Below, piece by piece: positions 16,191 to 47,855 of a stretch of 64,000 bases of DNA. Location: IMG/VR virus record IMGVR_UViG_3300045988_146577, one strand, 5' to 3'. The position numbers and the translations under genes were made by a program. Below the pieces are notes generated by a model that was given only the letters and a program-made list of their open reading frames with translations, was not told the origin of the DNA and ran no database searches. The stretch is from a virus (lineage: Duplodnaviria > Heunggongvirae > Uroviricota > Caudoviricetes). How positions within the stretch are numbered: position 1 is the stretch's first letter; each line of letters starts with the position of its first letter.

Positions 16191-16244
16191 TGCTTCCGTA
16201 TATATTTAATAAGTTACTTATTATTTATATATACAGAAGCAGGC
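16191..16244. repeat. 54-bp AT-rich palindromic element, copy 1 of 2
   Basis: CCTGCTTCCGTATATATTTAATAAGTTACTTATTATTTATATATACAGAAGCAGG; one mismatch to copy at 47801-47855; sits in a divergent intergenic region. Confidence 0.8.
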
Positions 16245-16348
16245 TCCTAATGGATACCAAGAACAACATAATTTGACTCCAACCCCAGATGCTATGTCAT
16301 TGACAGATTTATCAAGGGAGATCATGTTAGAATCAGTGTTTTAGCCTC

Positions 16349-17422
16349 GTGGATATTGTCACCATGCGCATGAATAGACTTCCAGGATATGGCCTTACCG
16401 AACTGGCTTTTTGGCCTCAGCCTAAATATGAACGGAATAAATGGTCGATGTTCTGTCTGAAACTCCGTAATGATGGAACCCTTGCTTGGTATCGGCGATA
16501 TGTTGATCGTGGTATGCCAAACCACGCTTTTGATGACGACTACGATAACTATCCTGAAGCAAGAAAAGCGGCATTAGAGCTGAATAAAAACGTGAGCTTT
16601 GACATTGAAAAACTTCCTCTATCTATGTTTCAAAAGAAGTCATTGCGTTTGAAAGTTGACAAAGCACTCAAAGCCAAATCACGTCTCATGGATGAAGAGC
16701 ATATAATGCTCAACGAAGCAATTAAGGCACACGCCAACGATCCGCGAGTGACATTAAATGAGTTAATAATTAACCCAGATTACGAAACTTTGCGTCAACC
16801 CCTTTTTGACGTGCTAAGCGAGATGCCTTACTTACATTTTGTTTTTCTTCCCAAATTCCAAGTTTCACTTCAACTCGTTGCTCCTAACACTTGGGAATGT
16901 TCATATAACAACAAAGCTAAGACAGCGAAGATCTGCTACCAAGAACGCATAGCCAGAGGTTTTGGTTTATCAGGCGCTGCACATTGGGGAAAAACAAAAG
17001 CGACTATTCGCTCAATGCTTCTGCCGCGTGCTAACCGGTTACTGCAACTCGCCAGCGTAAAAAGAATGCTGGATGAAGCTCTCAGGAATGGGCAAAAGGT
17101 ACTGGTTGTTGGCAACTTTGTTTTCTGGTTTGAGGACAAAAATCAGGTAGGTTGGAGTGTTAAAGTTGCTAGCGAAAGCGAAACCACCTCAAGAGGCAAT
17201 ACGCTCTGGAAAGAAGGAACTATCATTTCAAAAAATCACGGTCGAATTGTCGTGCTGCCGTATACAAAAGAAAACGGTAAACATGTAAAAGGTTATACCA
17301 AGAATGCCCCTAACGACGGCAACGCAATTCCGAGACATAAGGATGAGTATGTCGAGTTGCCCTTTGAAATTTTGGATGGTGACTTGATGTTCAGTCTGTT
17401 CGGTGAGCTTAACTACGAATAG
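16349..17422 (+). CDS. hypothetical protein (lone plus-strand gene)
   Basis: 357 aa ORF with no recognisable motif. Confidence 0.5.
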   Translation: MDIVTMRMNRLPGYGLTELAFWPQPKYERNKWSMFCLKLRNDGTLAWYRRYVDRGMPNHAFDDDYDNYPEARKAALELNKNVSFDIEKLPLSMFQKKSLRLKVDKALKAKSRLMDEEHIMLNEAIKAHANDPRVTLNELIINPDYETLRQPLFDVLSEMPYLHFVFLPKFQVSLQLVAPNTWECSYNNKAKTAKICYQERIARGFGLSGAAHWGKTKATIRSMLLPRANRLLQLASVKRMLDEALRNGQKVLVVGNFVFWFEDKNQVGWSVKVASESETTSRGNTLWKEGTIISKNHGRIVVLPYTKENGKHVKGYTKNAPNDGNAIPRHKDEYVELPFEILDGDLMFSLFGELNYE

Positions 17423-17482
17423 CTTTCATAGAACGAAATATTTCTAAGGCTGTCCAATGCAGACCAGCCTTAGAGATTTATA

Positions 17483-17842
17483 TCAACCTTTCTTCATCAA
17501 CTCTCGTTTGATTTCATCGGTACGCATCGTGACATCGGCAGCGGTGATCGCCTCATTCAATTTCACGATGTCCTCGATTTCCTGCGGTGACTTCTCTGCC
17601 AGATGGAAAATGGCTGCTCGAATCACGTCAGAACGAGTGAACTTCTCGAAGCGAGGGATGAACTTCATCATCTCCAGCAGTTCGAAGTATTCGTCCTCCA
17701 GTGACATTGTGCGGCTTTTAATTTTCTCTTTGCCACGAGTCGGGCGTCCCTGTGGTCTGACTGGTTGGCGCAAAGGAGTTGTGTTCTTAGCCGGTGCATC
17801 AGGCTCTTTGCGCTTTGCTAGGTCACCCATTTTCATGGACAT
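17483..17842 (-). CDS. putative partition centromere-binding protein (ParG/ParB-like small partner of ParA)
   Basis: 119 aa ORF directly downstream of and abutting ParA; basic N-terminus; assigned by position only. Confidence 0.4.
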   Translation of the reverse strand: MSMKMGDLAKRKEPDAPAKNTTPLRQPVRPQGRPTRGKEKIKSRTMSLEDEYFELLEMMKFIPRFEKFTRSDVIRAAIFHLAEKSPQEIEDIVKLNEAITAADVTMRTDEIKRELMKKG

Positions 17843-18510
17843 TATTCTTCTTCCTCCAGACTCAACAGATAATCTACAAATTCTTCAAACTCGGCTTCCG
17901 CCTTTTTGTCGCGCTCGCTACCGGTCATTTCAAAGATAGAACGACCAGACTCTTCCGCATCATCATAGACGTTGCGGTTATATAGATTGACTGGCGCAGA
18001 CTCGATTCCAAACGTCTCAACAATCTCTTTAGCCGCCAGAATGCGAGACACTTGTGATGGCAAAGCCGGGCACTGGTTCATGACCGCGCGGACCTTCACT
18101 TTATCGTTTACATTGCGAACATTGTCGATAATAGGATCGATGTCACGTAAAGATTTCAAATCACGACGCTTAGGACGCAGCGGGATAATGATAACGTCAG
18201 CCATCAGCATCGCTTGTCGCTGAATTTCGGAGTCGAAGCCACCAGCATCTACCACTACAAACTCAGCTCTACCCTGAAGCGATTTTAGGTGCTTAATGAT
18301 GTCATCCTGAACGTATGCAAAAGGAATCAGCTCAAGGTCTTCGTTCTGTCGACGGTCTTCACACCAGCTCGTTGTCGTGCGCTGAATATCTATATCGGTA
18401 ATATAAACCTTCTTCTTCTTTTTGACTTTCATGCAAACGGCAATTTGCTGGGCAACGGTGGATTTGCCAGGCCCGCCCTTTGTGCCGCCAACCACAAAGA
18501 TCTTGGTCAT
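17842..18510 (-). CDS. parA: ParA/Soj-family partition ATPase
   Basis: 222 aa; deviant Walker A GGTKGGPGKST at N-terminus. Confidence 0.8.
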   Translation of the reverse strand: MTKIFVVGGTKGGPGKSTVAQQIAVCMKVKKKKKVYITDIDIQRTTTSWCEDRRQNEDLELIPFAYVQDDIIKHLKSLQGRAEFVVVDAGGFDSEIQRQAMLMADVIIIPLRPKRRDLKSLRDIDPIIDNVRNVNDKVKVRAVMNQCPALPSQVSRILAAKEIVETFGIESAPVNLYNRNVYDDAEESGRSIFEMTGSERDKKAEAEFEEFVDYLLSLEEEE

Positions 18511-18545
18511 TGGAGAGTTCCCTTTGCGTATATAATTATCGTCTG

Positions 18546-18562
18546 AAACAACTTGTTTTCTT
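18546..18562 (-). promoter_or_regulatory. palindromic operator motif A upstream of parA
   Basis: AAACAACTTGTTTTCTT 36-52 nt upstream of parA start. Confidence 0.5.
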
Positions 18563-18828
18563 ATATGTGATATAGCCTAAATGCCTACGGCTGCGGTGTA
18601 AAGGTTAAATGGTAGGTTGTGATTAACAATTGGCAATCATAGCTTGTATTTGTCTGTTGAAAAAAGTAACAATGACCTCTATATTACAAGTACGGTGATA
18701 TGCCGTACACAATTTGATAATGCACACGTAATGGGCTATAGCCTTTTAAAGTAATTTTTGAGTCGAAAACTCAGTTTGAACAGAGGAGATTGATGGCCTT
18801 CCTACATCACGGCCATCAGGAGGAATAC

Positions 18829-19098
18829 ATGTCAGCACTAAAAAAGCAGCGCATCGATTTGAGATTAACCGATGACGATAAAAGCATCATCGAGGAAGCT
18901 GCCGCAATGTCTAACCAGAGCATTACTCAGTTTATGGTTAGCAGTGCATCTGAACGTGCCGTGAAAGTTATAGAGCAACACCGTAGACTAGTTCTGAATG
19001 AAGAATCCTGGAATCTGGTTATGGACGCTATAAGCAATCCTCCGGCACCGAACGACAAGCTGAAACGAGCTGCTGATCGTCTGAAAAGCATGGAGTAG
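18829..19098 (+). CDS. DUF1778/TacA-like antitoxin (partner of GNAT toxin)
   Basis: Start at ATG 18829 after SD AGGAGG (track ORF begins at 18790); about 89 aa; sits directly upstream of GNAT gene. Confidence 0.65.
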   Translation: MSALKKQRIDLRLTDDDKSIIEEAAAMSNQSITQFMVSSASERAVKVIEQHRRLVLNEESWNLVMDAISNPPAPNDKLKRAADRLKSME

Positions 19099-19105
19099 TT
19101 TACTC

Positions 19106-19627
19106 GTGAGCAATACAACGATAGAGATTTTCTCTGGAGAGAAAGATTATGATCTAAACGGTTTTGATTGCGGCGAAGAGTCACTAAACGCCTTTTTAGC
19201 CAACCACTTAAAAAGGCAGCATGAGGGAAAAATTCTTCGTGCTTATGTGCTTTGCACTCAAGAAGAAAGGCCAAAAGTGTTAGGATATTACACTTTGTCA
19301 GGTAGTTGTTTTGAAAAGGAGTCCTTACCTTCAAGAAGCAAACAAAAGAAGGTTCCTTATCGGAATGTTCCAAGTGTTACTTTGGGTAGGCTGGCTTTGG
19401 ACAAGTCCCTTCAAGGTCAAGGATTTGGCTCAATGCTTGTAACACATGCAATGCGCGTTGTGTACAATGCATCTCTTGCTGTAGGCATTCATGGACTTTT
19501 CGTTGAGGCGTTAAATGACAAAGCCAAGGCGTTTTATAAAAGTTTAGGCTTTATCCAGCTGGTTGGTAACAACGAGCGTTCTTTGTTCTATCCTACAAAA
19601 TCTATCGAAAAATTGTTCGAAGAATAA
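19106..19627 (+). CDS. GNAT-family acetyltransferase toxin (TacT/AtaT-like)
   Basis: 173 aa; acetyl-CoA binding motif RLALDKSLQGQGFGSMLV; 8 nt after antitoxin stop. Confidence 0.7.
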   Translation: MSNTTIEIFSGEKDYDLNGFDCGEESLNAFLANHLKRQHEGKILRAYVLCTQEERPKVLGYYTLSGSCFEKESLPSRSKQKKVPYRNVPSVTLGRLALDKSLQGQGFGSMLVTHAMRVVYNASLAVGIHGLFVEALNDKAKAFYKSLGFIQLVGNNERSLFYPTKSIEKLFEE

Positions 19628-19795
19628 TGTGTTCCCCTCATTTGAGGGGAACTTCGACATCACCAACCACAAACCCTCTCTCCCATCGTATTGTGAAAAA
19701 GGATTTGGCGTTCGGTTTCTTCAGTCATTACATCATTATTGCTGATATAGATAGGCTCAGCCCCATCGCAGAACAACACGCTGGCTGTTTGTGGT

Positions 19796-20047
19796 TTAAT
19801 GACGCACCCACTTATCATACAACTCACGATGAACGGCAGAAGCATCTTTCTGACGTATTTTACTGCTCGTCTCATTCACCACTTTCACTGTGTTTTGAAG
19901 TCGTTTTCTGTCTTCCTGTTTTGCCTTCTCTTCCATTGCTCGTCGCGCCGCATTCCCGCCCATCGTGTAAGCGCCGACAAGAACGAAAAGAACGGCAGCC
20001 AGCGTAATCAAAGCAACTTTTAGCTTTGTCATCAGGCTGCCTAGCAT
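19796..20047 (-). CDS. putative spanin / lysis accessory protein
   Basis: 83 aa; N-terminal TM helix then charged coiled-coil-like region; immediately downstream of endolysin-like gene. Confidence 0.4.
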   Translation of the reverse strand: MLGSLMTKLKVALITLAAVLFVLVGAYTMGGNAARRAMEEKAKQEDRKRLQNTVKVVNETSSKIRQKDASAVHRELYDKWVRH

Positions 20048-20048
20048 A

Positions 20049-20768
20049 TTAGACCATCCCTTTCTGGTGTTTTCTTACCTGCGACCAGGCAATGAATCCT
20101 GCCACAACAATAGTGGCAATACCGAAGATGATGCGTACTGTATCCCCGCTAGAGATATGACCTTGTGCTTTATCCATAGCAGCGGAAACCTGCGGCATAA
20201 CATCGGCCAGCTGCGCCAGACCAATACCTGCTGTAACAGTTGCGCCTGCGGTTTCTTTAGTTACAGGAACAGCCTTCACGGTTTTCACCGGCTTAACAAC
20301 GCCAGCTCGACGCAGACCTTCCTCAATAACTTCTGCCGCATACCAGGTGTTCAGCGTTTTTAGCGGACCTCGCCCATTCTCATGGCGAATGATTGCCTCA
20401 ACCAAAGGTCGAAGAATGTCGTAATCATGCAGATCGATAATCATGTCTGCGGTTACACCAACGGCTTTAGACACCTCATTAATGTAGGCGTCAGTATTAT
20501 TTTCATTCGGCGGTGCCCAGCGTTCAATAACTTCACGAATGGTATCGATACTTGAGCCGTCTTTTGCGCGACGTTTGTCGTGGTAGGTAATTAGAGTCAC
20601 CGCCAGCGCACGAATCCCCCAAACAGGGTCTTTAAACGTGCAAAAGCGCGGTTCGTCTGGATTCGCAACCAGACCTTGCCACGGTGATCCTTTATCAAGA
20701 TTACCGGGGTTATTATTACGAATGCCTCTCGGAGTCTTCATCCTTGATCTCCTGTTATTGCAGTCCAT
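20049..20768 (-). CDS. putative endolysin with C-terminal transmembrane segment
   Basis: 239 aa; N-terminal RGIRNNNPGNL motif, C-terminal hydrophobic helix; between holin-like and spanin-like genes. Confidence 0.45.
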   Translation of the reverse strand: MDCNNRRSRMKTPRGIRNNNPGNLDKGSPWQGLVANPDEPRFCTFKDPVWGIRALAVTLITYHDKRRAKDGSSIDTIREVIERWAPPNENNTDAYINEVSKAVGVTADMIIDLHDYDILRPLVEAIIRHENGRGPLKTLNTWYAAEVIEEGLRRAGVVKPVKTVKAVPVTKETAGATVTAGIGLAQLADVMPQVSAAMDKAQGHISSGDTVRIIFGIATIVVAGFIAWSQVRKHQKGMV

Positions 20769-21090
20769 TTTTTACGCCATACGCGGCTAACCCCAAAAGC
20801 AGTGCAGTAATAATGAACGACGTTATTTTAGAAACAATGCCGCCAAAGAACCCACTGGAGATGGAATCTAACCGGTTAAGGAGTTTGTCCAGATTGGAGT
20901 GTTGAATACTATGTTGCGCCGGGGTCATATCACCAAAGTAGGTTTTCAGCTGATCATTGACCTCCTGGCCAATTTCTTCACGTAGCTCTTTACCTAATTT
21001 ACCAACAACCTCCCGAGCAACGATCGCGGCAATACGCTCAACTTGCTCTGTTGTAACGCCCGCCATCTCGTTCGACATGTTTTCCTCCAT
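20755..21090 (-). CDS. putative holin
   Basis: 111 aa; C-terminal TM helix FGGIVSKITSFIITALLLGLAAYGV; first gene of cassette. Confidence 0.45.
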   Translation of the reverse strand: MEENMSNEMAGVTTEQVERIAAIVAREVVGKLGKELREEIGQEVNDQLKTYFGDMTPAQHSIQHSNLDKLLNRLDSISSGFFGGIVSKITSFIITALLLGLAAYGVKNGLQ

Positions 21091-21280
21091 GAAAAGTCAA
21101 ATCGGGATGGCGGATTTATATCACATTTCACCCTTTTGTTGTAGGTGTGTACTTACCTATCTATGTATATACCGTTTAACGGCTGTTCAAATTCGTATCT
21201 AGTAACTCACTAATATATCCCTATGATTGCGGCTGTGAGATCGCATTTTAAACCTCACAGCCATATAAATAATGTCTAAA

Positions 21281-24200
21281 TCAGTTACTTGTTGCCCCAA
21301 CAGTACCGGCAAATTTCAGCCATTGACCTGACGGACTTCTATTACTGCGGTAGTGATAAACGAGGATTGCGTTTGTCACTCCACCGTAATCAGCTTTATG
21401 TGACGTTGTTAAACGAATTGTATAATCACCGTTAGGTAGATTAAAAACTTCGATTATAGATTCTGCTAATTCTACAGCACCAAATCCCGTTATATTGTTG
21501 ATACTGCCAGCATTGAATCCCATAGCATCGCCAAAGCCAATCCAATATCTTTTGCTAAACGCCCCATTTGATTTAAGGTGGCTAATGAATGTGGACAAAC
21601 TCATGCCCATATCCCCACCTGAAATAGAGGAAGTTCGCACAGTCATGCTTGGAAGAGCACTGCTCTTCACATAGGAACTTAGAAGATTCGTTACCTCTGT
21701 TTTCGTATAAGCATTAAGGTTAGCCGCAGTCAAAGTAATATCGGCAGAGCCATCAAACGCCACACCAGCAATTTTCCTTGCTGTCTGCAATTTTGTGGCG
21801 GTTGCAGCATTACCAGTAGTGTTCTGGTTCCCATCTGCATTCACACCTGGGATGCTGTCTTTTTTAGTATATATCTGAGTCCAGTCCTCTTCGAACCCAT
21901 AGCCATCACGTGATGAACGGTAATACAATCCACCATTTTTATAATGCGCTCGGATTTGGAGAGTCCGACAACTACCTACGCCTATATAAAAATTTGCAAC
22001 GATATAAGAATCCCCGGAGCGTGTAACATTATACGCACCTGATTCGGCATTCCACGGGACCGCACCACTAGTATCGGCATAAGTTCCAGTAGCGCGTCGA
22101 GCAAAAGCAGATACATTTGCAGCTGTTAGTGTTATATCAGCAGAACCATCAAAAGACACGCCGCTTATTTTTCTAGCAGTTTGCAACTTCGTAGCTGTTG
22201 AAGCATTACCGTTCAAACTACCATTTACGCCACCAGTAACATTTAGTCCATTACCAATGGACACAGCACCGCTGGTATTATTAATTGTAATAGGTCGCAA
22301 ACCGTTCCATGAACCTAATGTGTTTCCTGATGCTGTTAGCATGAAATATGTGTTCGATCCATCATTACGGATAAAGAACCCAAAGCTACCGTAAGCAATG
22401 CGGAAACCATTTGCATATTTTGAAACGATCTCACCAGAAGACGTTAATCCGCCAGTTAACGCTCCTCCAGATAGTGGTAAAGCTCCGACATCAGCCGCAG
22501 TAGGCTTGTTTTTAGTGTTATACGCTCTGCGCCATCCTGGTGAATAGCTCGTCCCGTTAAATACATAGATAAACTCCGCATTAGTGAGAGCACCAGAGAC
22601 ACTCGTCGTTGTGGCCGTTGTTATACGGATCGTATAATTGTTTGAGCTACTACCGTTATTAAATACCTCAATAACTGCGCCAGCCAGTGGAATAATGCCG
22701 CATCCTGTTTCGCTGTCTGGTATGGATGCACTATTTGCATACGCCCAAGCACAACGCGCTATCCATGCCTTTGCATTAAAAGCACCATTATTTTGCAATA
22801 ACGTCACTAACTGTGCTGTTGTTATTGCTCCGCCATTACTTCCTGTAGTTAACCAACCAGTAGGAGATGCCGGGCAACCTATATTTGTTGGCGACAAGGA
22901 AATATTTGCCGAGCCGTCAAACGACACCCCATTGATAGTACGCGCAGTCTGCAACTTCGTAGCAGTAGCCGCGTTGCCCGTTGTATTCTGATTACCAGTC
23001 GTATTAACACCTGGCAAATTAATATTCGCAGTACCATCAAAGCTCACGCCGCCGATAGTTCTTGCCGTCTGAAGTTTTGTAGCAGTTGCAGCATTACCAG
23101 TGGTGTTCTGATTACCCGTAGTATTTACACCTGGAAGGTTGATATTTGCAGAACCGTCGAAACCAACTCCACCGATAGATCTTGCCGTCTGCAATTTCGT
23201 TGCTGTACTTGCATTACCATTTAATGTTCCGGTGATCCCACCAGTAACAGACAACGGACCTGAAACTGTTCCTCCGGTTGTTGGCAGTGCTCCAATATCT
23301 AACGGCGTCGGTTTCTGATGTGTGCTATACATCGTATAAACAACACCATCGGTAACGCTGGAAGGCTTACTAGCTGAATATGTTGGCGATGTATAAATAG
23401 AAACTGTCGCATTTGCAGTACAATCCCAATGGATATTTACACGAGTCGCATAATTGCCAATCTCAACGTAAATATCATATGTATCGCCGGATGTGTTGAT
23501 CCAGGCGAAATTCGTTAATCCGACAGCTGTACGCTTCCACAAAGCACCTGTAATCCCTTTGGGGTTTCCATTGCCTGCTCGTAGAACCAGTTCTGAAATG
23601 CCTGCCTGATGTGGGGAGCCGACGTTGTAACCAGCGCCACCAATCAATGCGATGTAAACGATGGAACTCGCTTGTGGCATTGTAACAGTAGCCAGTTTGA
23701 ACCACCCGGCCCCGCCAGAGAAAGACATCGTTATTGAATTTAAAGTACCAATATCTTTCGGCGTTAATGTGATATCCGCAGTCAGTGCTTTACCGTTAAC
23801 TTTTCGGTTAGATGGCACCCTGCTATTCGCATTGTCATTGGCTGCTTTAACTGCTTTTGGCGTTGCGGCCAGCGATTCACTGGTGCTATCAACAGCACTG
23901 CTAAGTTTCACAACACCTTTAGTTGTAAGGCTTGCGTCTTCCATCGCAACTGCACCGGCAATCTCTTCAGCACGATCAGCAGCAGCTTCCGCACGGGTCG
24001 CAGCGGATTCAGCAGCAGTTTTGCTCTGAGATGCTGCCGTCGCACTGCCTGCCGCCTCTGTCGCCTTCGTGGATGCTGTCGTGGCGCTGCCCTTCGCTGC
24101 GGACGCTTGTCTGGTCGCCTCATCTTTTGAAGCAGACGCCGATGATGCCGATGACGCCGCCGAACTGGCGGACGATGCGGCAGCCGTTTTTGAGGATTCT

Positions 24201-25306
24201 GCGCTGGTTTCCGACGCTTTCGCGTTCGTTTCGGATGTCTTCGCTGCGGAAGCTGACCTCGCTGCTGCGCTGGCCTGTTCAGTGGCTTCGCCAGCCTTCG
24301 TTGTGGCTGTTGAAGCGGATGATGCGGCGCTTTCTGCCGATTTTCCGGCGGCGGTGGCACTGGCTGAGGCCTGCCCGGCACTTGTTGACGCGGCACTGGC
24401 AGACGACGCAGCCGCTGTTTTTGAGCCTGCCGCAGCTGAGGCGCTCTGTCCCGCTGCCGTCTCAGAAGACCTGGCGTTCGCCTCGGACTTTTTTGCCGCC
24501 TTCGCGGAATTTCCTGCCGCCGTTGCCGAGGAAGCGGCACTACTGGCGCTCGAGGATGCGTTCGTTTCTGATGATTTCGCTGCCTCTTTTGAGGCCGCCG
24601 CATCCCGGGCTGAGGTGGCAGCTTCTGACGCCTTCGTGGTCGCGGTGGATGCAGAAGTGGCTGCAGATTTTTGTGACGCTGCAGCATTCGTTTCAGACGT
24701 TTTCGCGGCACCGGCACTGGTGGCCGCCGCGCTTTTTGAGGACTCTGCAGCGGATGCACTTTGAGACGCTTGAGAGGCTTTTTCTCCAGCGGTATTGGCG
24801 CTTTCTGCTGCTGCGGCAGCACTGGCCGCCGCCTCACGAGCTTTGTCGCCAGCAGCATCAATCGCGTCAGTGTTATTTTTATACCACTCAACGTTTTCGT
24901 TGTGCTCGTTGACGATCTGCATTAGCGGCTTAACGGTCACTTCTGTACCGTCTTCACGCTCGATTGTCACCTCATCCAGAGCAGTCAACCAACTGCGCAT
25001 GGACTTGGAATCAGCCGACATACGCGACATTAGTGCTGTAAAGCGCGCGCTAAACTGTGTTAAGTCGCCTTCATAGGTCGTAATGATTCGGCACGGAACT
25101 TCAGACTGAGTTTCGCCGGTATAAGGTTCTGAGAGAACAATGTTCGTATCGCTTATTACGCGCTTGATCTCATACAGCTTATTGTCGGGGCCAATGACGA
25201 TCATCCCCGGCAACACACCATTAGCTGTTACGTTCCAGGCTGTCCCTGCCCCAACCAGAGTATTGCTACCCTGTGTAAATGTGATAGTACCTTCCCTGTA
25301 CCACAT
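21281..25306 (-). CDS. stf: side tail fibre protein (lambda Stf-like) with Ala/Ser-rich repeat region and tail-fibre repeats
   Basis: 1341 aa; long ETNA...ASxSA low-complexity stretch; multiple GNAATATKLQTAR...GVxFDGSA repeats. Confidence 0.85.
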   Translation of the reverse strand: MWYREGTITFTQGSNTLVGAGTAWNVTANGVLPGMIVIGPDNKLYEIKRVISDTNIVLSEPYTGETQSEVPCRIITTYEGDLTQFSARFTALMSRMSADSKSMRSWLTALDEVTIEREDGTEVTVKPLMQIVNEHNENVEWYKNNTDAIDAAGDKAREAAASAAAAAESANTAGEKASQASQSASAAESSKSAAATSAGAAKTSETNAAASQKSAATSASTATTKASEAATSARDAAASKEAAKSSETNASSSASSAASSATAAGNSAKAAKKSEANARSSETAAGQSASAAAGSKTAAASSASAASTSAGQASASATAAGKSAESAASSASTATTKAGEATEQASAAARSASAAKTSETNAKASETSAESSKTAAASSASSAASSASSASASKDEATRQASAAKGSATTASTKATEAAGSATAASQSKTAAESAATRAEAAADRAEEIAGAVAMEDASLTTKGVVKLSSAVDSTSESLAATPKAVKAANDNANSRVPSNRKVNGKALTADITLTPKDIGTLNSITMSFSGGAGWFKLATVTMPQASSIVYIALIGGAGYNVGSPHQAGISELVLRAGNGNPKGITGALWKRTAVGLTNFAWINTSGDTYDIYVEIGNYATRVNIHWDCTANATVSIYTSPTYSASKPSSVTDGVVYTMYSTHQKPTPLDIGALPTTGGTVSGPLSVTGGITGTLNGNASTATKLQTARSIGGVGFDGSANINLPGVNTTGNQNTTGNAATATKLQTARTIGGVSFDGTANINLPGVNTTGNQNTTGNAATATKLQTARTINGVSFDGSANISLSPTNIGCPASPTGWLTTGSNGGAITTAQLVTLLQNNGAFNAKAWIARCAWAYANSASIPDSETGCGIIPLAGAVIEVFNNGSSSNNYTIRITTATTTSVSGALTNAEFIYVFNGTSYSPGWRRAYNTKNKPTAADVGALPLSGGALTGGLTSSGEIVSKYANGFRIAYGSFGFFIRNDGSNTYFMLTASGNTLGSWNGLRPITINNTSGAVSIGNGLNVTGGVNGSLNGNASTATKLQTARKISGVSFDGSADITLTAANVSAFARRATGTYADTSGAVPWNAESGAYNVTRSGDSYIVANFYIGVGSCRTLQIRAHYKNGGLYYRSSRDGYGFEEDWTQIYTKKDSIPGVNADGNQNTTGNAATATKLQTARKIAGVAFDGSADITLTAANLNAYTKTEVTNLLSSYVKSSALPSMTVRTSSISGGDMGMSLSTFISHLKSNGAFSKRYWIGFGDAMGFNAGSINNITGFGAVELAESIIEVFNLPNGDYTIRLTTSHKADYGGVTNAILVYHYRSNRSPSGQWLKFAGTVGATSN

Positions 25307-25399
25307 GTTGAATATGCTCCTTGATTTGGCGGGCTATCCTTGCCCGCCATTAAGTAAATACTTACCTATTTTTACCGATATAAAATTTTTTTTCCACCA

Positions 25400-30133: not shown

Positions 30134-30145
30134 AAAAATCCTTGT

Positions 30146-30739: not shown

Positions 30740-31551
30740 GTCTCATCTCCCTTGAGCAAGTCTCTGTGACGCAAGTGATGCGTCGTATGTTTCTGATACA
30801 TTCCGCCGTAATAAGCACGACAACTAAGGCGGTCGATCTGGTGATGAAGAATCATTCCATCGCCGATATAAACCGCGCAGTGGTCAGGCATTTTCCCGTA
30901 TTGGATAAAGAAGATGTCCCCACGTTGAGGCTCTGTTCCGGGCGCAAGACGCACCAATCCCTCGTTACGGTAGTTCTGATCGAGAATGTCGTTATCGCCG
31001 GTGTACCACGATGGAATATGCAGGTGTGCGTTCGGGTTTAGTTCGACGTTAAACTCACGCTTCAAATAGTCCCGACACAACATCCAGCAATCGAATACGC
31101 CAAATACATACGGTCTGCCCAGATATGGCATTTCGAAACCATCAGGTGTGATCACATTCATCTCGCTAAAATGGAAAGGGGCATCTCCCTCAACATTCTT
31201 GCGAATAGCCAGAATCATCCACGGAACTTCCGTCGCTTCGCAGCCTGCACGATCGGCATCAGATGCTTCTGCTGATTCATCAGTATGTGAATGCCAGATT
31301 GCGATAACATCACCCGCATCCTCTGCCGCCATAATGTCGTCAACGTGCATTACAAAAGTGTTCTGCGGGTTCTCCGAAACATTCCGCGCTTCCATAAAGC
31401 GATATTTGTCGCCATTAGTTCTAACCAGAAAGCCACACGCTTCATTAGGGTAGCGATTTATGGCGCAGAGATAGATTTGCTGCATAACGTCAGAGCCAAG
31501 CTCAGGGATTGCTTTATTACCCATACCGCGTAGCTCCAATAAATCCGCCAA
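30727..31551 (-). CDS. tail assembly protein (lambda K-like; JAB/MPN + NlpC/P60)
   Basis: 274 aa; HSHTDES...D JAMM-like motif and DCWMLCRDY...H NlpC/P60 Cys-His. Confidence 0.8.
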   Translation of the reverse strand: MADLLELRGMGNKAIPELGSDVMQQIYLCAINRYPNEACGFLVRTNGDKYRFMEARNVSENPQNTFVMHVDDIMAAEDAGDVIAIWHSHTDESAEASDADRAGCEATEVPWMILAIRKNVEGDAPFHFSEMNVITPDGFEMPYLGRPYVFGVFDCWMLCRDYLKREFNVELNPNAHLHIPSWYTGDNDILDQNYRNEGLVRLAPGTEPQRGDIFFIQYGKMPDHCAVYIGDGMILHHQIDRLSCRAYYGGMYQKHTTHHLRHRDLLKGDETCLS

Positions 31552-38766: not shown

Positions 38767-38804
38767 TCATTGCGCTAATAGTAAGTATATACTTACTAAT
38801 TGAG

Positions 38805-39188: not shown

Positions 39189-39189
39189 A

Positions 39190-41345: not shown

Positions 41346-41389
41346 AACGCATTCTCTCTACATGGGCGGCTTTCGCCGCCCAATATTGA

Positions 41390-42310: not shown

Positions 42311-42383
42311 TTCTTGCTCCTACAAAAAGGGTGGGCGTATAGCCCACCCTTTAACATAGATAACTACTTATCTACTACACTGA

Positions 42384-43259: not shown

Positions 43260-43284
43260 CTATCAATTCCCTTTGATTTAGATG

Positions 43285-44172
43285 TTACTTAAGTCCAATT
43301 TTCCCCAGACCGGAGGCCAACTTATCCATAGTCGACTTGTTCTTCGGTTGGGATATTGTGTAGGTCGATTTGGAATGTGAGCCTACACCCTGCTTGGCTT
43401 CGCTACGCATCAATGCGTCAGCTTCCGGATCTGCCCGCACAATGCGTTCAATCGCGGATTCAAACGGCAACGGCTTACCTTCACCGTCAACCAGAACAGC
43501 TCGTTCTTTATGACCTGCCGGTTTGTCATAACCCACTACGCTACCGTCTTCACCCACTTCAAAATGAGAACCGTAGATCACGCGGGCTTTTGCCGGAGTC
43601 ATCAGAACTTTGTCACGTAGGAAGAGAGAGTTACTGAAGGAAGCGCCCACGGTCATCTCGACTAATTGAGATTTCAGTGATGCGTTTTCACTTTCCAGTG
43701 CTGCATAACGTTCGTCACGCTGTGCCAGCTCTGCCTGGTGTGCTTCGATCATCTGTTTTTTAACAGCATCGAACTCACCACGACGCTCCAGTTCAGCTTG
43801 CTCCGCCTCACGACGTGCGTTTTCTGCGGCCTGTTCAGCTTCTAAAAGCTGGCGAGCACGCGCCGGGTCGATATCACCGTACTGAGCAAGCTGATCGGCC
43901 AATGTGCGCTCTTTCTCTTTGCGCTTCATGTTCTCTTTCAGCAGTTCAGCACCAGCTTTCTTGGTTTTGCGAAGTTCGGCCAGTAACTCTTCATGAGTCA
44001 TGCCAGCGTATTCGTCATCACCCTTCGGCTGCTCTTTTTGTTCACCCTGTTTGTCAGGATCTTGTGTACTCTGCTCATTATCAGCAGCTACACCGCCAGC
44101 GCCTCCACGCTCATGCGCTTCAGCAACACCCATCAGACCACGACGGGCCAAAAGCATTTGCCACAGTTGCAT
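43285..44172 (-). CDS. scaffolding protein
   Basis: 295 aa; charged coiled-coil-rich central region; between portal and capsid genes. Confidence 0.65.
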   Translation of the reverse strand: MQLWQMLLARRGLMGVAEAHERGGAGGVAADNEQSTQDPDKQGEQKEQPKGDDEYAGMTHEELLAELRKTKKAGAELLKENMKRKEKERTLADQLAQYGDIDPARARQLLEAEQAAENARREAEQAELERRGEFDAVKKQMIEAHQAELAQRDERYAALESENASLKSQLVEMTVGASFSNSLFLRDKVLMTPAKARVIYGSHFEVGEDGSVVGYDKPAGHKERAVLVDGEGKPLPFESAIERIVRADPEADALMRSEAKQGVGSHSKSTYTISQPKNKSTMDKLASGLGKIGLK

Positions 44173-44193
44173 AAAAATTCCCTTTGTTACTTA

Positions 44194-45768
44194 TCACTCG
44201 TTCTCTTGAGTAGATGAGTCCCCATTCCCTCGGGGTTGATCTTGCCCGCTTTCTTGGGCTGCGCCTTGATCATAAGTAAGTACTGACTTATTTTCAAGAG
44301 TATTTAGATCATTTTTTGGCGGAAAATTCAAGAGATCTTTATCAAATTCCTTCTTCATCGCCTCAGTGATGTTCGGGAAAATCTTCTCAATCAGCATTTC
44401 CATCTGGTGACGACGTACAGAGTCCGGTGCCTGAAGTAACGACAGTTTCTCGGCAACAGAAAATTCATCAGTAAGGCCACGAATATCGAAACTTTCTGGA
44501 TACGCAATTAATGAGTGGTCTTCGTCCAGATCTACCCCCATCCATTTCGCAACCAGTAGCATGATTTGGCGTTCAGCCCTTTCCAGACGCTCTGCTTTTG
44601 TGACAAGCAAGCTATTTACACGCTGGAAGTCATACATTTTTGCGGCACCAGATGAGTTATCGATTCCCTGTGCGTTGTCCTGCTTCGTTCGCTCACCAGC
44701 TACACCAACTGAATGGTAGATTTCGTTAATCACCGTCTTAATCGTAGTGATGATCATCTGAGCTTGTTTCGGGTCTGGTGACAGATAAAACGGCTGGTTT
44801 CCACCTTCAGAATCGTAGGTGAAGACTCGCTTTGTGCCCATTTCAAGCACTTTAGTGTGGTTTTCATCACCAGGTAAAAGCGACTGTACCGGTATAGCCA
44901 ACTGGCTAAATGTCTGATCCTGAATAATGGCATCAAGGTTTGACAGATAGTTTGCAACCGCACGATCAAGATAAGCGATATCATCGATCAACGATGGGCT
45001 GAAATACGGTGATTCACTTTCTCCAATACAATCAACAGGAAACACAGGAACTACGCCGAGATTATGCTCACCGCTATCCTCTAAAATAACTTTTGCCTGA
45101 CGGCGACCTGCTCCACCAGCGCCCTTCTTCACTTCCTCACGGAACAGATACCACTCGTTTTGTGTCCACAGACGATAACGTTGGTATTCCTGACCTGTAG
45201 AAGTAAAAGGATCTGCGTCATCACGAGCGACTTCCACAATTAACGCCCACAACATATTCCCGTCGTCGTCCCATGCCACATCCAGCATTTGCTGAGGTGA
45301 AATCCAGTAGGCGTAGGCGCGAGCATCTTTCTTTTTCTCGTCAGCTACTGACTCAACATCACCACTCATCGTGCTATCGACAACAACCCATATGCGACCG
45401 TAAATAGACGACTGCAAATCAATAGCGGCCATAAATGAGTCAATAGAGGCATTCTGGCGAGTCGCACGTTTCCAGAAATTGCGGATCTGCTCTGGTGCCT
45501 CTTCGATATTTCTATGAATGTCTTCTTTAAAGAGATATTTGTTGATGAGGTTTACCACCTCACGAGTGTGGTTGAAGCGATAAGCACGCTCAACTCGCTC
45601 CTTAAACTCCTGATCTCCCTCTTTAAAGTAACGAAAGATATTGTCTGTAAACCAACCACGCCCGCCAGCGTAAGTGCTGGCGAGGAAGTCCCAATGTTCT
45701 TTTTTCTTTTCGTATTCCGGGTGGCGTCGCGCCACCAGATCCTTAATTTGTTTGTCGTTCAATTCCAT
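44194..45768 (-). CDS. portal protein
   Basis: 524 aa ORF directly downstream of terminase large subunit. Confidence 0.75.
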   Translation of the reverse strand: MELNDKQIKDLVARRHPEYEKKKEHWDFLASTYAGGRGWFTDNIFRYFKEGDQEFKERVERAYRFNHTREVVNLINKYLFKEDIHRNIEEAPEQIRNFWKRATRQNASIDSFMAAIDLQSSIYGRIWVVVDSTMSGDVESVADEKKKDARAYAYWISPQQMLDVAWDDDGNMLWALIVEVARDDADPFTSTGQEYQRYRLWTQNEWYLFREEVKKGAGGAGRRQAKVILEDSGEHNLGVVPVFPVDCIGESESPYFSPSLIDDIAYLDRAVANYLSNLDAIIQDQTFSQLAIPVQSLLPGDENHTKVLEMGTKRVFTYDSEGGNQPFYLSPDPKQAQMIITTIKTVINEIYHSVGVAGERTKQDNAQGIDNSSGAAKMYDFQRVNSLLVTKAERLERAERQIMLLVAKWMGVDLDEDHSLIAYPESFDIRGLTDEFSVAEKLSLLQAPDSVRRHQMEMLIEKIFPNITEAMKKEFDKDLLNFPPKNDLNTLENKSVLTYDQGAAQESGQDQPRGNGDSSTQENE

Positions 45769-45794
45769 TTGAATAACCTTAGATAATTACTTAC

Positions 45795-47051
45795 CTATCG
45801 AGAGCCACCAAGAATAACACGGTTTTTGACTGGATACCTACGATGTACTGGATAGCCCAATGCGTCTGCACTATGCTCAATGCCACCTGTCTTATCCATA
45901 TCTCGTGTTCCAGGCTTGTAGATGACTTTTTCCAGTGAATCAATCAAATGCTTGCACTTCGGATCGATATACAGCCGGATATCTCCAGATGCGGTCATCA
46001 GCATTCGGTTAACAGCATTAACACGATCCGCAATTGGCGGGTGCTTTTTCGAATAATCGACACGTAAGAATCCCTTCTCTTTGAATATGTCGACGTCAGA
46101 CTCCCCGCGAGCATGTTGGCGATAAGCACCTGCCGGATCTGGAAATACCGTTATCTGTGATTTCCAGCGCCAGAAGCGTCTCTCAAGCTCATCACAAACC
46201 TCTGCCGTGTTAGAGGAAAAGAGCACCAATTCATCAATTGCCCATAGCTCACCATTTGGCTGAGGTTGCAAAATTACTGAAGACATCGGGTCAATGTTGA
46301 AGTCCTGCCCTACCCATATAGGCAACCGAGGGTTGAACTGAAGCGGTTTTACATGCACGTTACGATCGAACGGGTAGTAAACGCGCCCGGACATGTTCTC
46401 AAAGCTCGCCAGGTACTCCTGAGCGAACGATTTCGGGTCCATATCGTTCTTAGCAGCTTCAATTTCCGCCGTAGGTACAAACGGAGAATCGGCAGTTACA
46501 AACTGCCAGCTCTTCCACTGTCCCTTTCTTTGCAGCTCTACGTTCTGGCCTATAGTCCACAGTTTGTGAAATTCCGAGAAGCCTTTTGGCGTACCAATGA
46601 TCAGTGCACCGCCGCGTGTCGATGAAAGAGTAGGTCGTAACACCTTGTACCAGGTGTCAGCCTTCATATCCTGAAATTCATCAAGCACTACAAAATGCAA
46701 CGCTACGCCGCGCAGAGTGTCAGGCTTATCAGCACCTTTGAGGGCGATCTCCGAACCGTTCTTCAACACGATTGTCATCGTGGTGTCGTTCTTTCTCCTA
46801 ACCCACTTACGAGGCAGAACTTCCTGTAGATCGTCCCACAAAATCTGGCGAGCCATCTGGTAAGTAGGAGCGACATACCAGACCCTTTGCTTTTTTTCCT
46901 TTGCCGCCGCACGAATAATAGTGGAGATCGACAACCGGGATTTTCCCCAGCGTCGACCAGCACAAACAACTTTAAATCGATGCGGAGACTGGAAGACTTT
47001 CATCTGTCCAGAATGCAGTTGCACAAGACTGAGCGAGGACGGGATTGCCAT
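45795..47051 (-). CDS. terminase large subunit
   Basis: 418 aa; Walker A VVCAGRRWGKS, Walker B-like VVLDEFQDM, C-terminal nuclease-like region. Confidence 0.8.
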   Translation of the reverse strand: MAIPSSLSLVQLHSGQMKVFQSPHRFKVVCAGRRWGKSRLSISTIIRAAAKEKKQRVWYVAPTYQMARQILWDDLQEVLPRKWVRRKNDTTMTIVLKNGSEIALKGADKPDTLRGVALHFVVLDEFQDMKADTWYKVLRPTLSSTRGGALIIGTPKGFSEFHKLWTIGQNVELQRKGQWKSWQFVTADSPFVPTAEIEAAKNDMDPKSFAQEYLASFENMSGRVYYPFDRNVHVKPLQFNPRLPIWVGQDFNIDPMSSVILQPQPNGELWAIDELVLFSSNTAEVCDELERRFWRWKSQITVFPDPAGAYRQHARGESDVDIFKEKGFLRVDYSKKHPPIADRVNAVNRMLMTASGDIRLYIDPKCKHLIDSLEKVIYKPGTRDMDKTGGIEHSADALGYPVHRRYPVKNRVILGGSR

Positions 47052-47683
47052 TATTCGTCCTCCCCTTCACTTCCATCATCTGTCGCATCAAATTCGCTTA
47101 GAGCTTCTTCTTCCAACGTCTCAAGCAATTCGTCATCGATGATTTCAGGCTCGTCGTCTTCCTGACGTAATTTCGCCACCTGGGAAGGCGTAAGCTCACC
47201 AAATACCAGGTTCGGAATTTCTTCCTCGTCATTTTCCGCATGATCCATGCCCAATGCTTTGGACGAAACTTCAAAGCATTTTGCAAGGGTATTACTGGCT
47301 CTCTGTAAGCTCTTGAGAGAATCCTCAATCGCCCCTAAAGGCTTACCCTCACGTTTGGCCGTAGTGACTTCGACCATCACCATCTGCCCCAACGCATACG
47401 CCCAGCCGTCATAACGTGTACGACGTTCTTCTATCTTTTCCGCACGGGCTTTAGCGCGAAGCTCTGCGTCAGATTTAAGAGACTCACGAACCATCTTCCC
47501 AACAGAGTCCGCGCCTTTCTCTAATCCTCGCTTTTTGAAATGTCTGGAGAGTGTTTCACGACGAATGCCGTACTCTTCCTCCAGCTTTGAGAGTGTATAT
47601 TCGCCTGACGTCCATTTGGCTTCAGCTTCGGCCCACTCCGCTGGTGTCAGGCGAGTTTTTACCTCGTCTTTTTCGACCGTCAT
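47051..47683 (-). CDS. terminase small subunit (HTH)
   Basis: 210 aa; N-terminal HTH-like region, acidic C-terminus; abuts terminase large subunit. Confidence 0.6.
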   Translation of the reverse strand: MTVEKDEVKTRLTPAEWAEAEAKWTSGEYTLSKLEEEYGIRRETLSRHFKKRGLEKGADSVGKMVRESLKSDAELRAKARAEKIEERRTRYDGWAYALGQMVMVEVTTAKREGKPLGAIEDSLKSLQRASNTLAKCFEVSSKALGMDHAENDEEEIPNLVFGELTPSQVAKLRQEDDEPEIIDDELLETLEEEALSEFDATDDGSEGEDE

Positions 47684-47723
47684 AGATCCCTCTAAAACAC
47701 ACAGAGCGCGTCCATGCGCTCTA

Positions 47724-47764
47724 AAACAACTTGTTTACTGCATCTTCTAACCAACTTGTTTTCT
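47724..47764 (-). promoter_or_regulatory. operator motif A, two half-site copies upstream of terminase small subunit
   Basis: AAACAACTTGTTT and CCAACTTGTTTTCT 40-80 nt upstream of start at 47683. Confidence 0.5.
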
Positions 47765-47800
47765 GGGGTGTTTAATTAGGTCTGGGCATGTCTTACTAAG

Positions 47801-47855
47801 CCTGCTTCCGTATATATTTAATAAGTTACTTATTATTTATATATACAGATGCAGG
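47801..47855. repeat. 54-bp AT-rich palindromic element, copy 2 of 2
   Basis: One mismatch to copy at 16191-16244; lies between the ParB/ATPase/GNAT/wHTH operon and the terminase operon. Confidence 0.8.

Follow-up and report, generated by a model that had tools for sequence, protein, structure and literature searches.

Several kinds of phage and plasmid sites are known that combine dyad symmetry with a position between genes. The terminators tR' of lambda and T-phi of T7 are GC-based stem-loops followed by a U-tract, and they lie on the sense side, tens of nucleotides past a stop codon. The RNase III sites of T7 (R0.3 to R18.5) are paralogous hairpins with two stems and an internal loop, which are found between genes or operons; the upstream mRNA is left with a 3' hairpin that protects it. 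The SopB sites of N15 and the KorB operators of RK2 are contiguous palindromes of 13-16 bp, present as a few scattered copies near promoters in replicons with ParB-type genes. The cosN site of the lambda/HK97 type is a sequence of twofold symmetry that lies in the non-coding gap just before the small terminase gene; cos is a single-copy site and is usually GC-rich. Finally, telRL of the phage-plasmid N15 is a palindrome of ~56 bp with (TA)n dyad symmetry.

SSU5-like phage-plasmids are common in E. coli, occur also in Salmonella, Klebsiella and Yersinia and carry resistance genes. The stretch of DNA analyzed here (64,000 nucleotides, referred to as the window) was found to belong to an SSU5-like phage-plasmid of E. 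coli. It contains a 55-bp imperfect palindrome with GC clamps and an AT-rich interior, which occupies site A upstream of the small terminase gene (TerS), site B upstream of gp038 and, beyond the window, site C. At sites B and C, the element resembles lambda tR' and T7 T-phi in having a GC-based stem-loop and a U-tract on the sense side shortly after a stop codon; however, its stem is ~25 bp long, mostly A-U and bulged, the three copies have one sequence, and copy A is not followed by a U-tract. The element shares with the T7 RNase III sites the paralogous hairpins and the two stems separated by an internal loop, whereas its stems are longer and AU-rich, and it has only three copies, which are placed at block boundaries. 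As with the N15 and RK2 sites, the copies are few, scattered near promoters and accompanied by ParB-type genes, but they consist of arms of 8-14 bp around a variable AT-rich core of ~27-39 bp, and the same structure is also present in nickie-like phages, for which no temperate behaviour has been observed. Copy A lies where a cosN site would lie; the element differs from cos in being present three times and in being AT-rich at its centre. A protelomerase site such as telRL, which is similar in size, in its (TA)n symmetry and in its phage-plasmid host, was rejected because SSU5-like relatives are deposited as circular, have three copies of the element and encode no protelomerase among the annotations seen.

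Searches of the window for exact matches and for matches with 3 mismatches revealed exactly two copies of the element, both on the plus strand and 31,612 bp apart (Table 1). With copy B as the reference, copy A differs by one mismatch (A->T at 47850), which lies in its right arm, where GATGCAGG replaces GAAGCAGG. The chance expectation for a second copy was 0 in 100 dinucleotide shuffles. The sequence-only reading of this DNA, which had described a near-identical, AT-rich, GC-clamped palindrome present twice about 31.6 kb apart, was thus confirmed. Its boundaries for the second copy (47801-47855) were retained, and the element proved to be 55 bp rather than 54 bp long, with the first copy starting at 16189 and not at 16191. 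The surroundings that it had described were also found: copy B has a divergent setting, between the gp038 ORF on the minus strand and an ORF on the plus strand (16349..17422), and copy A is located between the ParB-ATPase operon, which is closed by an 88-aa gene, and the TerS-TerL-portal operon, all of them on the minus strand.

The palindrome is interrupted by a bulge of 3 nt and contains, on the plus strand, a single C.A pair, which corresponds to a U.G wobble on the minus strand. As single-stranded DNA, it folded with -12 to -16 kcal/mol (z = -4.9 to -6.7 versus shuffles). Each window copy is surrounded by an outer inverted repeat, which is less conserved than the element itself. The outer arms GGTCTGGG/CCCAGACC are kept at sites A and C in SSU5 and in the Klebsiella and E. 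coli relatives, and outer complementarity at site B recurs despite different cargo upstream.

Table 1. Positions of the two window copies of the element and of neighbouring features.
Feature	Position	Strand	Remarks
Copy B, 55-bp hairpin element	16189..16243	-	Sense sequence CCTGCTTCTGTATATATAAATAATAAGTAACTTATTAAATATATACGGAAGCAGG; 107 nt upstream of the gp038-DnaB-primase block
U-rich tail UCUUUUAAAAG	16178..16188	-	Directly 3' of copy B on the sense strand
Outer inverted-repeat arm GTTGTTCTGGT	16162..16172		Flanks copy B; partner is 16257-16268
Outer inverted-repeat arm ACCAAGAACAAC	16257..16268		Partner of 16162-16172
gp038 homologue (phrog_2500, function unknown)	15332..16081	-	Opens the replication block downstream of copy B
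Copy A of the element	47801..47855	-	24 nt past the stop codon of the 88-aa gene; 117 nt ahead of the TerS ATG
Outer inverted-repeat arm GGTCTGGG	47779..47786		Flanks copy A; partner is 47870-47877
Outer inverted-repeat arm CCCAGACC	47870..47877		Partner of 47779-47786
88-aa MarR-like winged-helix protein	47880..48146	-	Last gene before copy A; candidate trans-acting factor
Two copies of operator-like palindrome AAACAAnTTGTTT	47720..47764		Between copy A and TerS; repeat families D3 and D5
GC-rich hairpin and U-run (GAGCGCAUGGACGCGCUC UGUGUGUUUUAG)	47692..47723	-	9 nt before the TerS ATG
TerS-like DNA-binding protein	47051..47683	-	Opens the late operon downstream of copy A

The search for further copies in the complete element, which the sequence-only reading had proposed, yielded a third copy (copy C) ~12 kb past the right end of the window. 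Therefore, complete genomes carry exactly three copies, whose sites correspond between SSU5 and a complete E. coli plasmid. The three copies are in direct orientation, 28-47 kb apart, and point the same way as the genes on either side. In SSU5 and E. coli, every copy begins 22-27 nt past the last stop codon of a co-directional block and ends ~110 nt before the first ATG of the following block. Site A precedes TerS and the late operon, site B precedes gp038, DnaB and primase, and site C follows a Dam-like methylase. The genome of ~108 kb is split into late and structural genes (A to B), genes of replication and nucleotide metabolism (B to C) and early, regulatory and accessory genes (C to A). 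The three copies form a set of paralogous boundary hairpins between the main gene blocks, three in number, of SSU5-like phage-plasmids, and their location at the late, replication and early boundaries provides a concrete map of transcription units. The element appears to be unannotated and undescribed so far; the literature covered on SSU5, Cyrano, Nickievirus and ANB28 (the Gilcrease & Casjens paper and the announcement of the SSU5 genome apart) contained neither a description of it nor mapped virion ends.

Conservation of the element was studied in loci anchored by neighbouring proteins. It was kept in all of the ~150 protein-anchored relatives with enough upstream sequence. At site B, it was present in 80/80 gp038-anchored IMG/VR loci, and at site A, it was present in all 74 TerS-anchored IMG/VR loci with enough upstream sequence, two further loci of that set (L020 and L080) ending before the site. 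Among 5,426 complete E. coli genomes, 260 carried the element, and 1,012 of the 1,014 matches lay on SSU5-like plasmids. Hence, the element is not dispersed, and a MITE-, REP- or ERIC-type repeat dispersed over the host chromosomes was rejected. In enteric relatives, the arms CCTGYTTCYGTATA / TATACRGAAGCAGG are near-invariant, being almost unchanged among E. coli, Salmonella and Klebsiella, with flanking DNA only ~77-80% identical. The length varies from 51 to 57 bp via (TA)n slippage, and pairing is kept. In relatives at 55-65% TerL identity, the hairpin at site A was retained with entirely different arm sequences; these distant hairpins are long and have a GC-rich outer stem, an AT-rich interior and a z of about -5.4. 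Therefore, it may be concluded that pairing is what is conserved, the element being kept as a structure throughout a very large family of phages. Covariation within the enteric clade was no better than in the shuffle control, because divergence in this clade is too low.

Copies within one genome were found to be alike in two distant lineages, the enterics and the Pseudomonas phage nickie. The nickie palindromes overlap an operator-like motif (AACnACTTGTTTTTCT), so their homology to the 55-mer is uncertain, and they were not accepted as its direct homologues. A TTCC/GGAA core, sometimes everted, recurs in the arms of many distant lineages, and in a few cases (L085, L122) the core is flipped. 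At the edge of copy B, homology between relatives stops exactly, and many unrelated cargo modules adjoin there; in the window, the gene upstream of B has been swapped for divergent cargo.

As sense RNA, the element forms a hairpin of -23 to -30 kcal/mol with a GC clamp of 8-9 bp. The transcribed strand thus has a stable GC-based stem-loop, as in terminators, though an atypically long and AU-rich one, and in SSU5 and E. coli this stem-loop lies past a gene end in the sense orientation at all three sites. The inner stem measures ~24 bp, and an internal loop separates it from an outer stem of 8-12 bp. RNase III processing sites likewise have double-stranded RNA of at least ~20 bp, often as two stems with an internal loop. 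At site B, a sense-strand U-tract (at least 5 T within 9 nt after the hairpin) was present in 45 of 49 unique sequences, and the tails at site C read CUUUU(U) or CUGUUUU. At site A, in contrast, it was present in 0/29 unique sequences, and the distant relatives had none there either.

A strand preference in folding was also seen. Site B folded better as sense RNA in 23 of the 28 unique cores, with a mean of -22.6 versus -18.7 kcal/mol. Of the arm cells, 97.3% are paired on the sense strand; wobble pairs occur at seven positions, and pair 5 passes across relatives from C-G through U.G to U-A. The wobble bias was absent at site A (10/19), and in copy C of SSU5 the antisense strand pairs better. 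The comparison of 15 independent distant lineages was not decisive, the sense strand folding better in 10 of them and the antisense strand in 5, and the sense strand is G-rich in general. Because of the sense-strand U-tracts at B and C and the wobble bias at B, copies B and C look like intrinsic terminators. Since site A has no U-tract, there is only a hairpin there, which would be unable to terminate transcription alone; yet hairpin conservation is strongest at this site, so termination cannot be the common function of the three copies. Of the three roles suggested earlier, that of a terminator or insulator is thus the best supported, though in a single direction and for B and C alone, which have the U-tract on the sense side; a bidirectional terminator is not supported, as copy A has no sense-strand U-tract in any lineage.

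Taken together, we put the probability that the element acts in sense RNA, as a transcript-end or insulator hairpin at the three block boundaries, at about 45%. According to this explanation, the sense transcript would form a long stem-loop of ~-25 kcal/mol, built from the GC clamp (8-9 bp), a (UA)n stem and, at the apex, a stem of 7 bp. Together with the U-tract that follows it at B and C, this hairpin would cause intrinsic termination and insulate the next block. At A, it would most likely form the 3' end of the ParB-ATPase-winged-helix operon transcript or serve in the processing of that transcript, with a stem of ~24 bp, the size of an RNase III substrate, and the late operon would be gated ~100 nt beyond A by a separate GC hairpin and U-run before TerS. 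The active form would then be RNA, ending transcripts at B and C and serving their processing or stabilisation at A, as judged from the sequence pattern. The piling up of variable cargo upstream of B is expected just inside a terminator at the end of an operon.

It is rather unlikely that the palindromes act as duplex or extruded-cruciform DNA bound by a phage protein, i.e., as an operator, an insulator or a centromere-like loading site. Candidate binders are the 88-aa winged-helix protein, which is conserved in the family and encoded immediately upstream of A, with its conserved recognition helix, and two ParB_N proteins with ATPases. The near-invariance of the enteric arms within more variable flanks, the recurrent TTCC/GGAA core together with the three NTTTCC hexamers after B, the likeness of the copies within enteric and nickie genomes, and the lack of both a U-tract and a strand bias at A are consistent with a protein site. 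However, the half-sites are 43-49 bp apart with variable spacing, which a rigid dimer would not tolerate, the arms of distant relatives are wholly replaced while the candidate recognition helix is unchanged, the ParB proteins consist of the N-terminal domain only, and the sense-side U-tracts at B and C would be left unexplained. MarR-type dimers usually bind palindromes of 16-20 bp, a preference that fits the AAACAAnTTGTTT motifs better than the element. Considering the length range and the replaced arms of distant relatives, base pairing fits better than a rigid dimer site. The proposal of a high-affinity regulator site thus drew support from the enteric arms and from the winged-helix gene next to A, and was weakened by the variable length and the differing distant arms. 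Should a protein prove to bind the DNA of the element, this large phage family would have a boundary site of a new kind. A more elaborate version, which we regard as improbable, is that duplex or cruciform boundary elements bound by the 88-aa protein and/or the ParB-type/ATPase module divide the genome into three domains, insulated from each other in transcription or topology, and tie both the release of the late genes and packaging to that state; in that case the phage would encode an insulator system, not a series of terminators. It should be noted that the near-invariant enteric arms, the lack of significant covariation within that clade and the within-genome likeness of the copies speak against the RNA hairpin model; the likeness of the copies also fits a shared protein factor.

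Three further explanations were weighed against the RNA hairpin. One or more lytic replication origins, with an AT-rich unwinding centre between initiator-binding arms as in HSV oriS and the two SPP1 origins, are quite improbable. The GC arms around an AT-rich core would suit an origin, the conserved gp038-DnaB helicase-primase genes follow B directly in every relative, nickie included, and TTCC repeats adjoin B; but A and C are not beside replication genes, cumulative GC skew does not turn at any copy, gp038 has no recognisable initiator domain, and neither the fixed position after stop codons nor the sense-side U-tracts would be expected of an origin. It is very improbable that copy A is the cosN or pac site of the adjacent terminase, with B and C secondary or non-functional, although A occupies the only sizeable non-coding gap upstream of TerS, the SSU5 GenBank record begins and finishes inside it, and the Nickievirus TerL of this phage family was grouped with 3'-cos phages in a terminase tree (PMC8537276). 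A packaging site should be unique, whereas there are three near-identical copies in direct orientation, B and C being 28-32 kb from terS; the TerL families (Terminase_6N/3/6C; nearest solved relatives P74-26 and T4 gp17) do not indicate a cos enzyme, and the AT-rich centre would probably make unusually weak cohesive ends. Moreover, IMG/VR draft contigs of plasmid DNA also start inside the element, so the break in SSU5, at whose junction no base is missing or duplicated, is probably an assembly artefact. The idea of a packaging-associated site, raised in the sequence-only reading, therefore kept its location upstream of TerS and the record cut within A in its favour and is weak in view of the three copies and the breaks in plasmid drafts. 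Least credible of all is a functionless recombination linker or small mobile palindrome of MITE/REP-like type maintained by gene conversion. The end of homology at the edge of copy B, with unrelated cargo beyond it, the concerted evolution of the copies and the few flipped cores would agree with such an origin, but SSU5-like plasmids account for nearly all of the E. coli matches, the three sites do not change from genus to genus, every relative examined keeps them, and a structural equivalent occurs at the same site down to 55% TerL identity.

Because assemblies of SSU5-like plasmids break at fixed points within this repeat, the start of the SSU5 reference should not be taken as a virion end. 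Record starts of relatives were also rejected as virion ends: the start of the Cyrano record was copied from SSU5, which counts against the packaging explanation too, and PhiR41_1 was deposited as circular, so that neither is informative. In the public LF82 virome run ERR8973296, the coverage of Cyrano is low.

Other known site types were likewise rejected. A parS centromere of HTH ParB proteins is contiguous over ~16 bp, whereas the arms of the element are 39 bp apart, and the neighbouring proteins match ParB_N only. The half-sites CTGTATAT and ATATACAG are ~33 bp apart, unlike those of the LexA box CTGT-N8-ACAG, and one side is usually CCG/CGG. The arms CCTGCTTC / GAAGCAGG do not correspond to the RYYYAAC / GTTRRRY of an integron attC site, and no further copies enclose the cargo upstream of B. 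Rfam searches of the window at gathering thresholds found three tRNAs only, and permissive searches gave only sub-threshold matches to miRNA-precursor hairpin models. Consensus scans for promoters and terminators around both window copies picked up neither a sigma-70 promoter nor the element itself; this silence of the scanner and the atypical 25-bp, AU-rich, bulged stem are observations against the terminator model.

The genes around copy A were also studied. The operon ahead of it encodes two ParB_N proteins, an ABC-ATPase and a 296-aa protein and ends with the 88-aa gene. Pfam and PHROGs assigned no function to gp038, TerS or the 88-aa protein, and an HNH motif is absent from the latter. 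The predicted fold of the 88-aa protein is a winged helix (pLDDT 80.7) with a TM of 0.7-0.76 to MarR/MepR, and its recognition helix is conserved from E. coli to Magnetospirillum. The GC-rich hairpin and U-run just before TerS is a neighbour of copy A, separate from the element, and looks like an intrinsic terminator or attenuator of the late leader. A counterpart of this hairpin and U-run was also found ahead of TerS in distant relatives.

The 55-mer CCTGCTTCCGTATATATTTAATAAGTTACTTATTATTTATATATACAGAAGCAGG, an AT-rich palindrome with GC-clamped ends, was found at window positions 16189-16243 (copy B, the reference) and again at 47801-47855 with one mismatch, A->T at 47850 (copy A). No further copies with up to three mismatches were detected in the window, and the number of matches expected in shuffled sequences was 0. 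This search bore out the sequence-only reading that a palindrome occurs twice in the window with one differing position; the coordinates proposed there were correct for the second copy and off by two bases for the first, and the proposed length of 54 bp was one base short. The palindrome is imperfect and comprises an 8-bp GC clamp, an 8-bp (TA)n stem, a 3-nt bulge and a 7-bp apical stem; one C.A pair on the + strand is U.G on the - strand. Both strands folded much more stably than shuffles did, at z values of -4.9 to -6.7.

Judged from its sequence, the window is an E. coli SSU5-like phage-plasmid. Plasmid pU_B2_3 (NZ_CP075058.1) was 98% identical to it, and 98-99% identity was found in the corresponding stretches of three further records, 'Escherichia phage CMS-2020a', PhiR41_1 and Cyrano (pLF82). 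A search for further copies in the complete element, which had been proposed as a check, revealed a third one (copy C) in SSU5, at 78304-78360 between a Dam-like methyltransferase gene and the next gene, and in a complete E. coli plasmid. In the latter, B is at 30961, A at 62575 and C at 91094; both arms were matched nowhere else, so that the total is exactly three. Copy C would be situated approximately 12 kb past the window's right end. All three copies are oriented as their flanking genes are, start 22-27 nt past a stop codon and end 107-118 nt ahead of the next ATG, and the three sites have almost nothing in common outside the 55-mer. The copies split the genome into three blocks: 31.6 kb of late genes from A to B, ~47 kb of replication and nucleotide-metabolism genes from B to C, and ~28 kb of early, regulatory and accessory genes from C to A.

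Copy A lies 24 nt past the stop codon of an 88-aa gene and 117 nt ahead of the ATG of the small terminase gene TerS (47683..47051), the start of a - strand structural/late operon that extends to the tail fibre genes. The operon upstream of A encodes two ParB_N proteins, an ABC-type ATPase, a 296-aa protein and, last, the 88-aa protein. Copy B is located 107 nt upstream of a homologue of SSU5 gp038 (conserved, function unknown), which is followed by a DnaB-like helicase gene and then a primase gene; on its other side in the window there is a divergent cargo gene. The cargo region adjoining B also holds an ATPase gene with a 119-aa partner, and in relatives the genes found here are quite unlike these (DUF2971, a toxin-antitoxin pair and others).

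Coordinates of repeated motifs and neighbouring features in the window
Feature	Window position	Strand	Sequence or remark
Outer inverted repeat, weaker than the 55-mer	around copy A (47801-47855)		GGTCTGGG...CCCAGACC
Outer inverted repeat, weaker than the 55-mer	around copy B (16189-16243)		GTTGTTCTGGT...ACCAAGAACAAC
Palindromic motif	15304, 18542, 47720, 47745, 58058, 58543, 60192, 60676, 63309		AAACAAnTTGTTTTCT
Gene-junction motif	9131, 12647, 16083, 25350, 32264, 38781, 44272, 45779, 51071		resembles (G)ATAAGTAAGTAnnTACTTAT
Cargo region adjoining B	16244-20050		+ strand genes at 16349-20007
ParA/MipZ-like ATPase gene	17842..18510	-	within the cargo region
Cluster of three tRNA genes	8143-8386	-	Ser, Thr, Asn in a close relative's annotation
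1341-aa tail-fibre gene, internal repeats	21698-23219 and 24222-24709		repeats of 78-160 nt, spacing ~120 nt and multiples; second set, spacing 84-252 nt

Relatives were gathered from IMG/VR by protein anchor and not by the element itself (76 TerS loci and 80 gp038 loci). The element was present at every anchored locus with enough upstream sequence. Its arms, CCTGYTTCYGTATA and TATACRGAAGCAGG, were nearly invariant over the E. coli, Salmonella and Klebsiella types and were kept even at 80% DnaB identity. The AT-rich core varied in sequence and length, (TA)n slippage giving elements of 51-57 bp overall, and was flipped in a few loci (L085, L122). Derived features tended to be common to the copies of one genome, as in L063 and L148, which points to concerted evolution. 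At B, the sense-upstream flank was hypervariable, with many unrelated cargo modules, and the downstream flank was conserved; the homology breakpoint between relatives coincided with the exact edge of the element. The element was carried by 260 of 5,426 complete E. coli genomes, and 1,012 of the 1,014 matches were on plasmids of ~100-116 kb. None of these matches was annotated as an element, nor was an annotation found in any record or a mention in the searchable literature.

Members of the large terminase (TerL) family (Terminase_6N/3/6C) were found on contigs of ~100-115 kb from Gamma-, Beta- and Alphaproteobacteria and in phages such as Pseudomonas nickie, Rhizobium RHEph10 and Stenotrophomonas ANB28. 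Temperate behaviour was not observed for psageB1, a nickie-like phage (PMC8537276). Synteny at site A was constant: an opposite-strand helicase gene, ParB-like genes, ATPase genes and the gene for an ~88-aa small protein were followed by a long hairpin, an operator/promoter motif, a GC hairpin with a U-run, TerS and TerL. At 55-65% TerL identity the long hairpin was kept with entirely different arm sequences; its outer stem was GC-rich, its interior AT-rich and its centre often TAAGTA..TACTTA (L311, L310, L305 with a stem of ~50 bp, L299, L297, L306, L285). Over long distances, pairing and composition are kept and sequence is not. Phage nickie had one imperfect palindrome at each of its A- and B-equivalent sites, both with TTAACTACT / AGTTGTTA, and each of these motifs occurred exactly twice in the genome. 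A GC-clamped AT-rich palindrome was also present at the B-equivalent site of a DnaB relative at 40% identity.

Copies B and C were distinguished from copy A by a U-tract on the sense strand, i.e., the strand of the flanking genes. The sense strand past the hairpin read GCAGG-UCUUUU at B and CUUUUU (SSU5) or CUGUUUU (E. coli) at C. At least five T in the 9 nt after the hairpin were found in 45 of 49 unique sequences at B and in 0 of 29 at A, and no U-tract followed the distant A-site hairpins among the relatives examined. The earlier idea of a bidirectional terminator is thus not supported; a one-directional terminator, on the sense strand, is retained as a candidate role for B and C, and A cannot be a terminator. 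Sense RNA folded better than antisense in 23 of 28 unique cores at B and in 10 of 19 at A. Sense-strand pairing was found in 97.3% of arm cells, with wobble pairs at seven positions and a C-G, U.G, U-A series at pair 5. However, covariation in the shallow close-relative set was not significant against the shuffle control, copy C of SSU5 paired better on the antisense strand, the sense strand was better in 10 and the antisense strand in 5 of 15 distant lineages, and the sense strand is G-rich in general. Therefore, the wobble evidence is supportive for B only.

The number, positions and conservation of the copies and their split by U-tract were observed; from these we infer that the element acts at the RNA level, in termination and processing. 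In the favoured reading, the copies would be paralogous boundary hairpins of the sense transcript, B and C being terminator-like and A serving in processing or 3'-end formation; a probability of roughly 0.45 is assigned to this reading. B and C may insulate the late and replication blocks at their ends in the manner of intrinsic terminators, and A may be a processing or 3'-end hairpin that lacks a terminator and has the size of an RNase III substrate, closing the ParB-ATPase-winged-helix operon just upstream of a putative activator-dependent late promoter. Activator dependence was proposed because a consensus scan found no sigma-70 consensus there. A separate GC-rich hairpin with a U-run was found at 47692-47723 (- strand), 9 nt ahead of the TerS ATG, and relatives across the Proteobacteria have its equivalent, likewise resembling an intrinsic terminator, ahead of TerS. 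The late operon appears to be gated by this family-wide structure, which suggests that it is attenuated or needs antitermination; the layout recalls the known Q-pR'-tR' arrangement of lambda. The element itself is comparable to terminators as an operon-boundary hairpin and to the paralogous RNase III sites of T7, but is unusual in its three near-identical copies, very long AU-rich stem, structure conserved family-wide and inclusion of one copy that is unable to terminate.

The main competing explanation, that the element is a DNA site bound by a protein, was considered rather unlikely. The 88-aa gene (47880-48146, - strand), which immediately precedes A, is kept family-wide. Its product had no Pfam match and was predicted to fold as a MarR-like winged helix (pLDDT 80.7; Foldseek TM 0.70-0.76 to MepR, ZitR and MarR), with a predicted recognition helix, TTKQSxQFSIRALIKKG, almost unchanged from E. 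coli to Magnetospirillum and Halomonas. A protein site would also agree with the invariant arms, the likeness of copies within one genome, the TTCC/GGAA core kept in the arms of many lineages (sometimes everted) and the hexamers after B. However, the spacing of the arms is variable, the arms of distant relatives were replaced wholesale while the recognition helix stayed constant, and the U-tracts are left unexplained. A DNA boundary element, if real, would make the 55-mer considerably more interesting. A replication origin fits the position of B, which adjoins helicase and primase genes, but does not fit A or C and had no skew signal in its support. LexA box, parS, tel site, attC and MITE each failed a defining feature.

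That copy A is a cos/pac packaging site has a low probability. The SSU5 record (NC_018843.1 / JQ965645.1) is linearised inside copy A, between GACTTATTA and AATATATACGG, and one paper grouped a Nickievirus TerL with 3'-cos phages (PMC8537276). However, the start of the Cyrano record just copies that of SSU5, the SSU5 junction rebuilds a normal 55-mer with nothing missing or duplicated, and a unique cos/pac is difficult to square with three direct copies spaced 28-47 kb from each other. The closest solved relatives of TerL were P74-26 TerL and T4 gp17. L093 and L097 (IMG/VR contigs, draft bacterial assemblies) also start inside the element, at copy B, so such breaks reflect the effect of a repeated palindrome on assemblers. 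The repeat is a systematic assembly breakpoint, and hence the SSU5 coordinate origin should not be mistaken for a mapped end of virion DNA. Database entries for the 88-aa protein are in many cases 'partial' (65-87 aa; P0155, P0186, P0191-P0239), so E. coli draft contigs often end in or beside this gene, near copy A.

In every case the gene nearest upstream of the site-A hairpin was the 88-aa gene. A run of three NTTTCC hexamers (CCTTCC GTTTCC ACTTCC AAAAA), with the same TTCC/GGAA core as the arms, was observed 28 nt downstream of B on the sense strand and was strongly conserved among enteric relatives (entered as window 16201-16231; L082 and others). The palindromic motif AAACAAnTTGTTTTCT occurred at least eight times, mostly just upstream of operon starts, with two copies between A and TerS; it looks like the operator/promoter motif of a phage regulator, and the corresponding place in distant relatives held another palindrome (ATAAGTCACnnnGTGACTTGA). 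The motif resembling (G)ATAAGTAAGTAnnTACTTAT recurred at gene junctions, 10-45 nt ahead of start codons, and contained stop codons in at least two frames. It was also seen in distant relatives, e.g., around the TerS RBS and ATG of L284, and the 55-mer has a similar sequence at its centre (AATAAGTnACTTATT).
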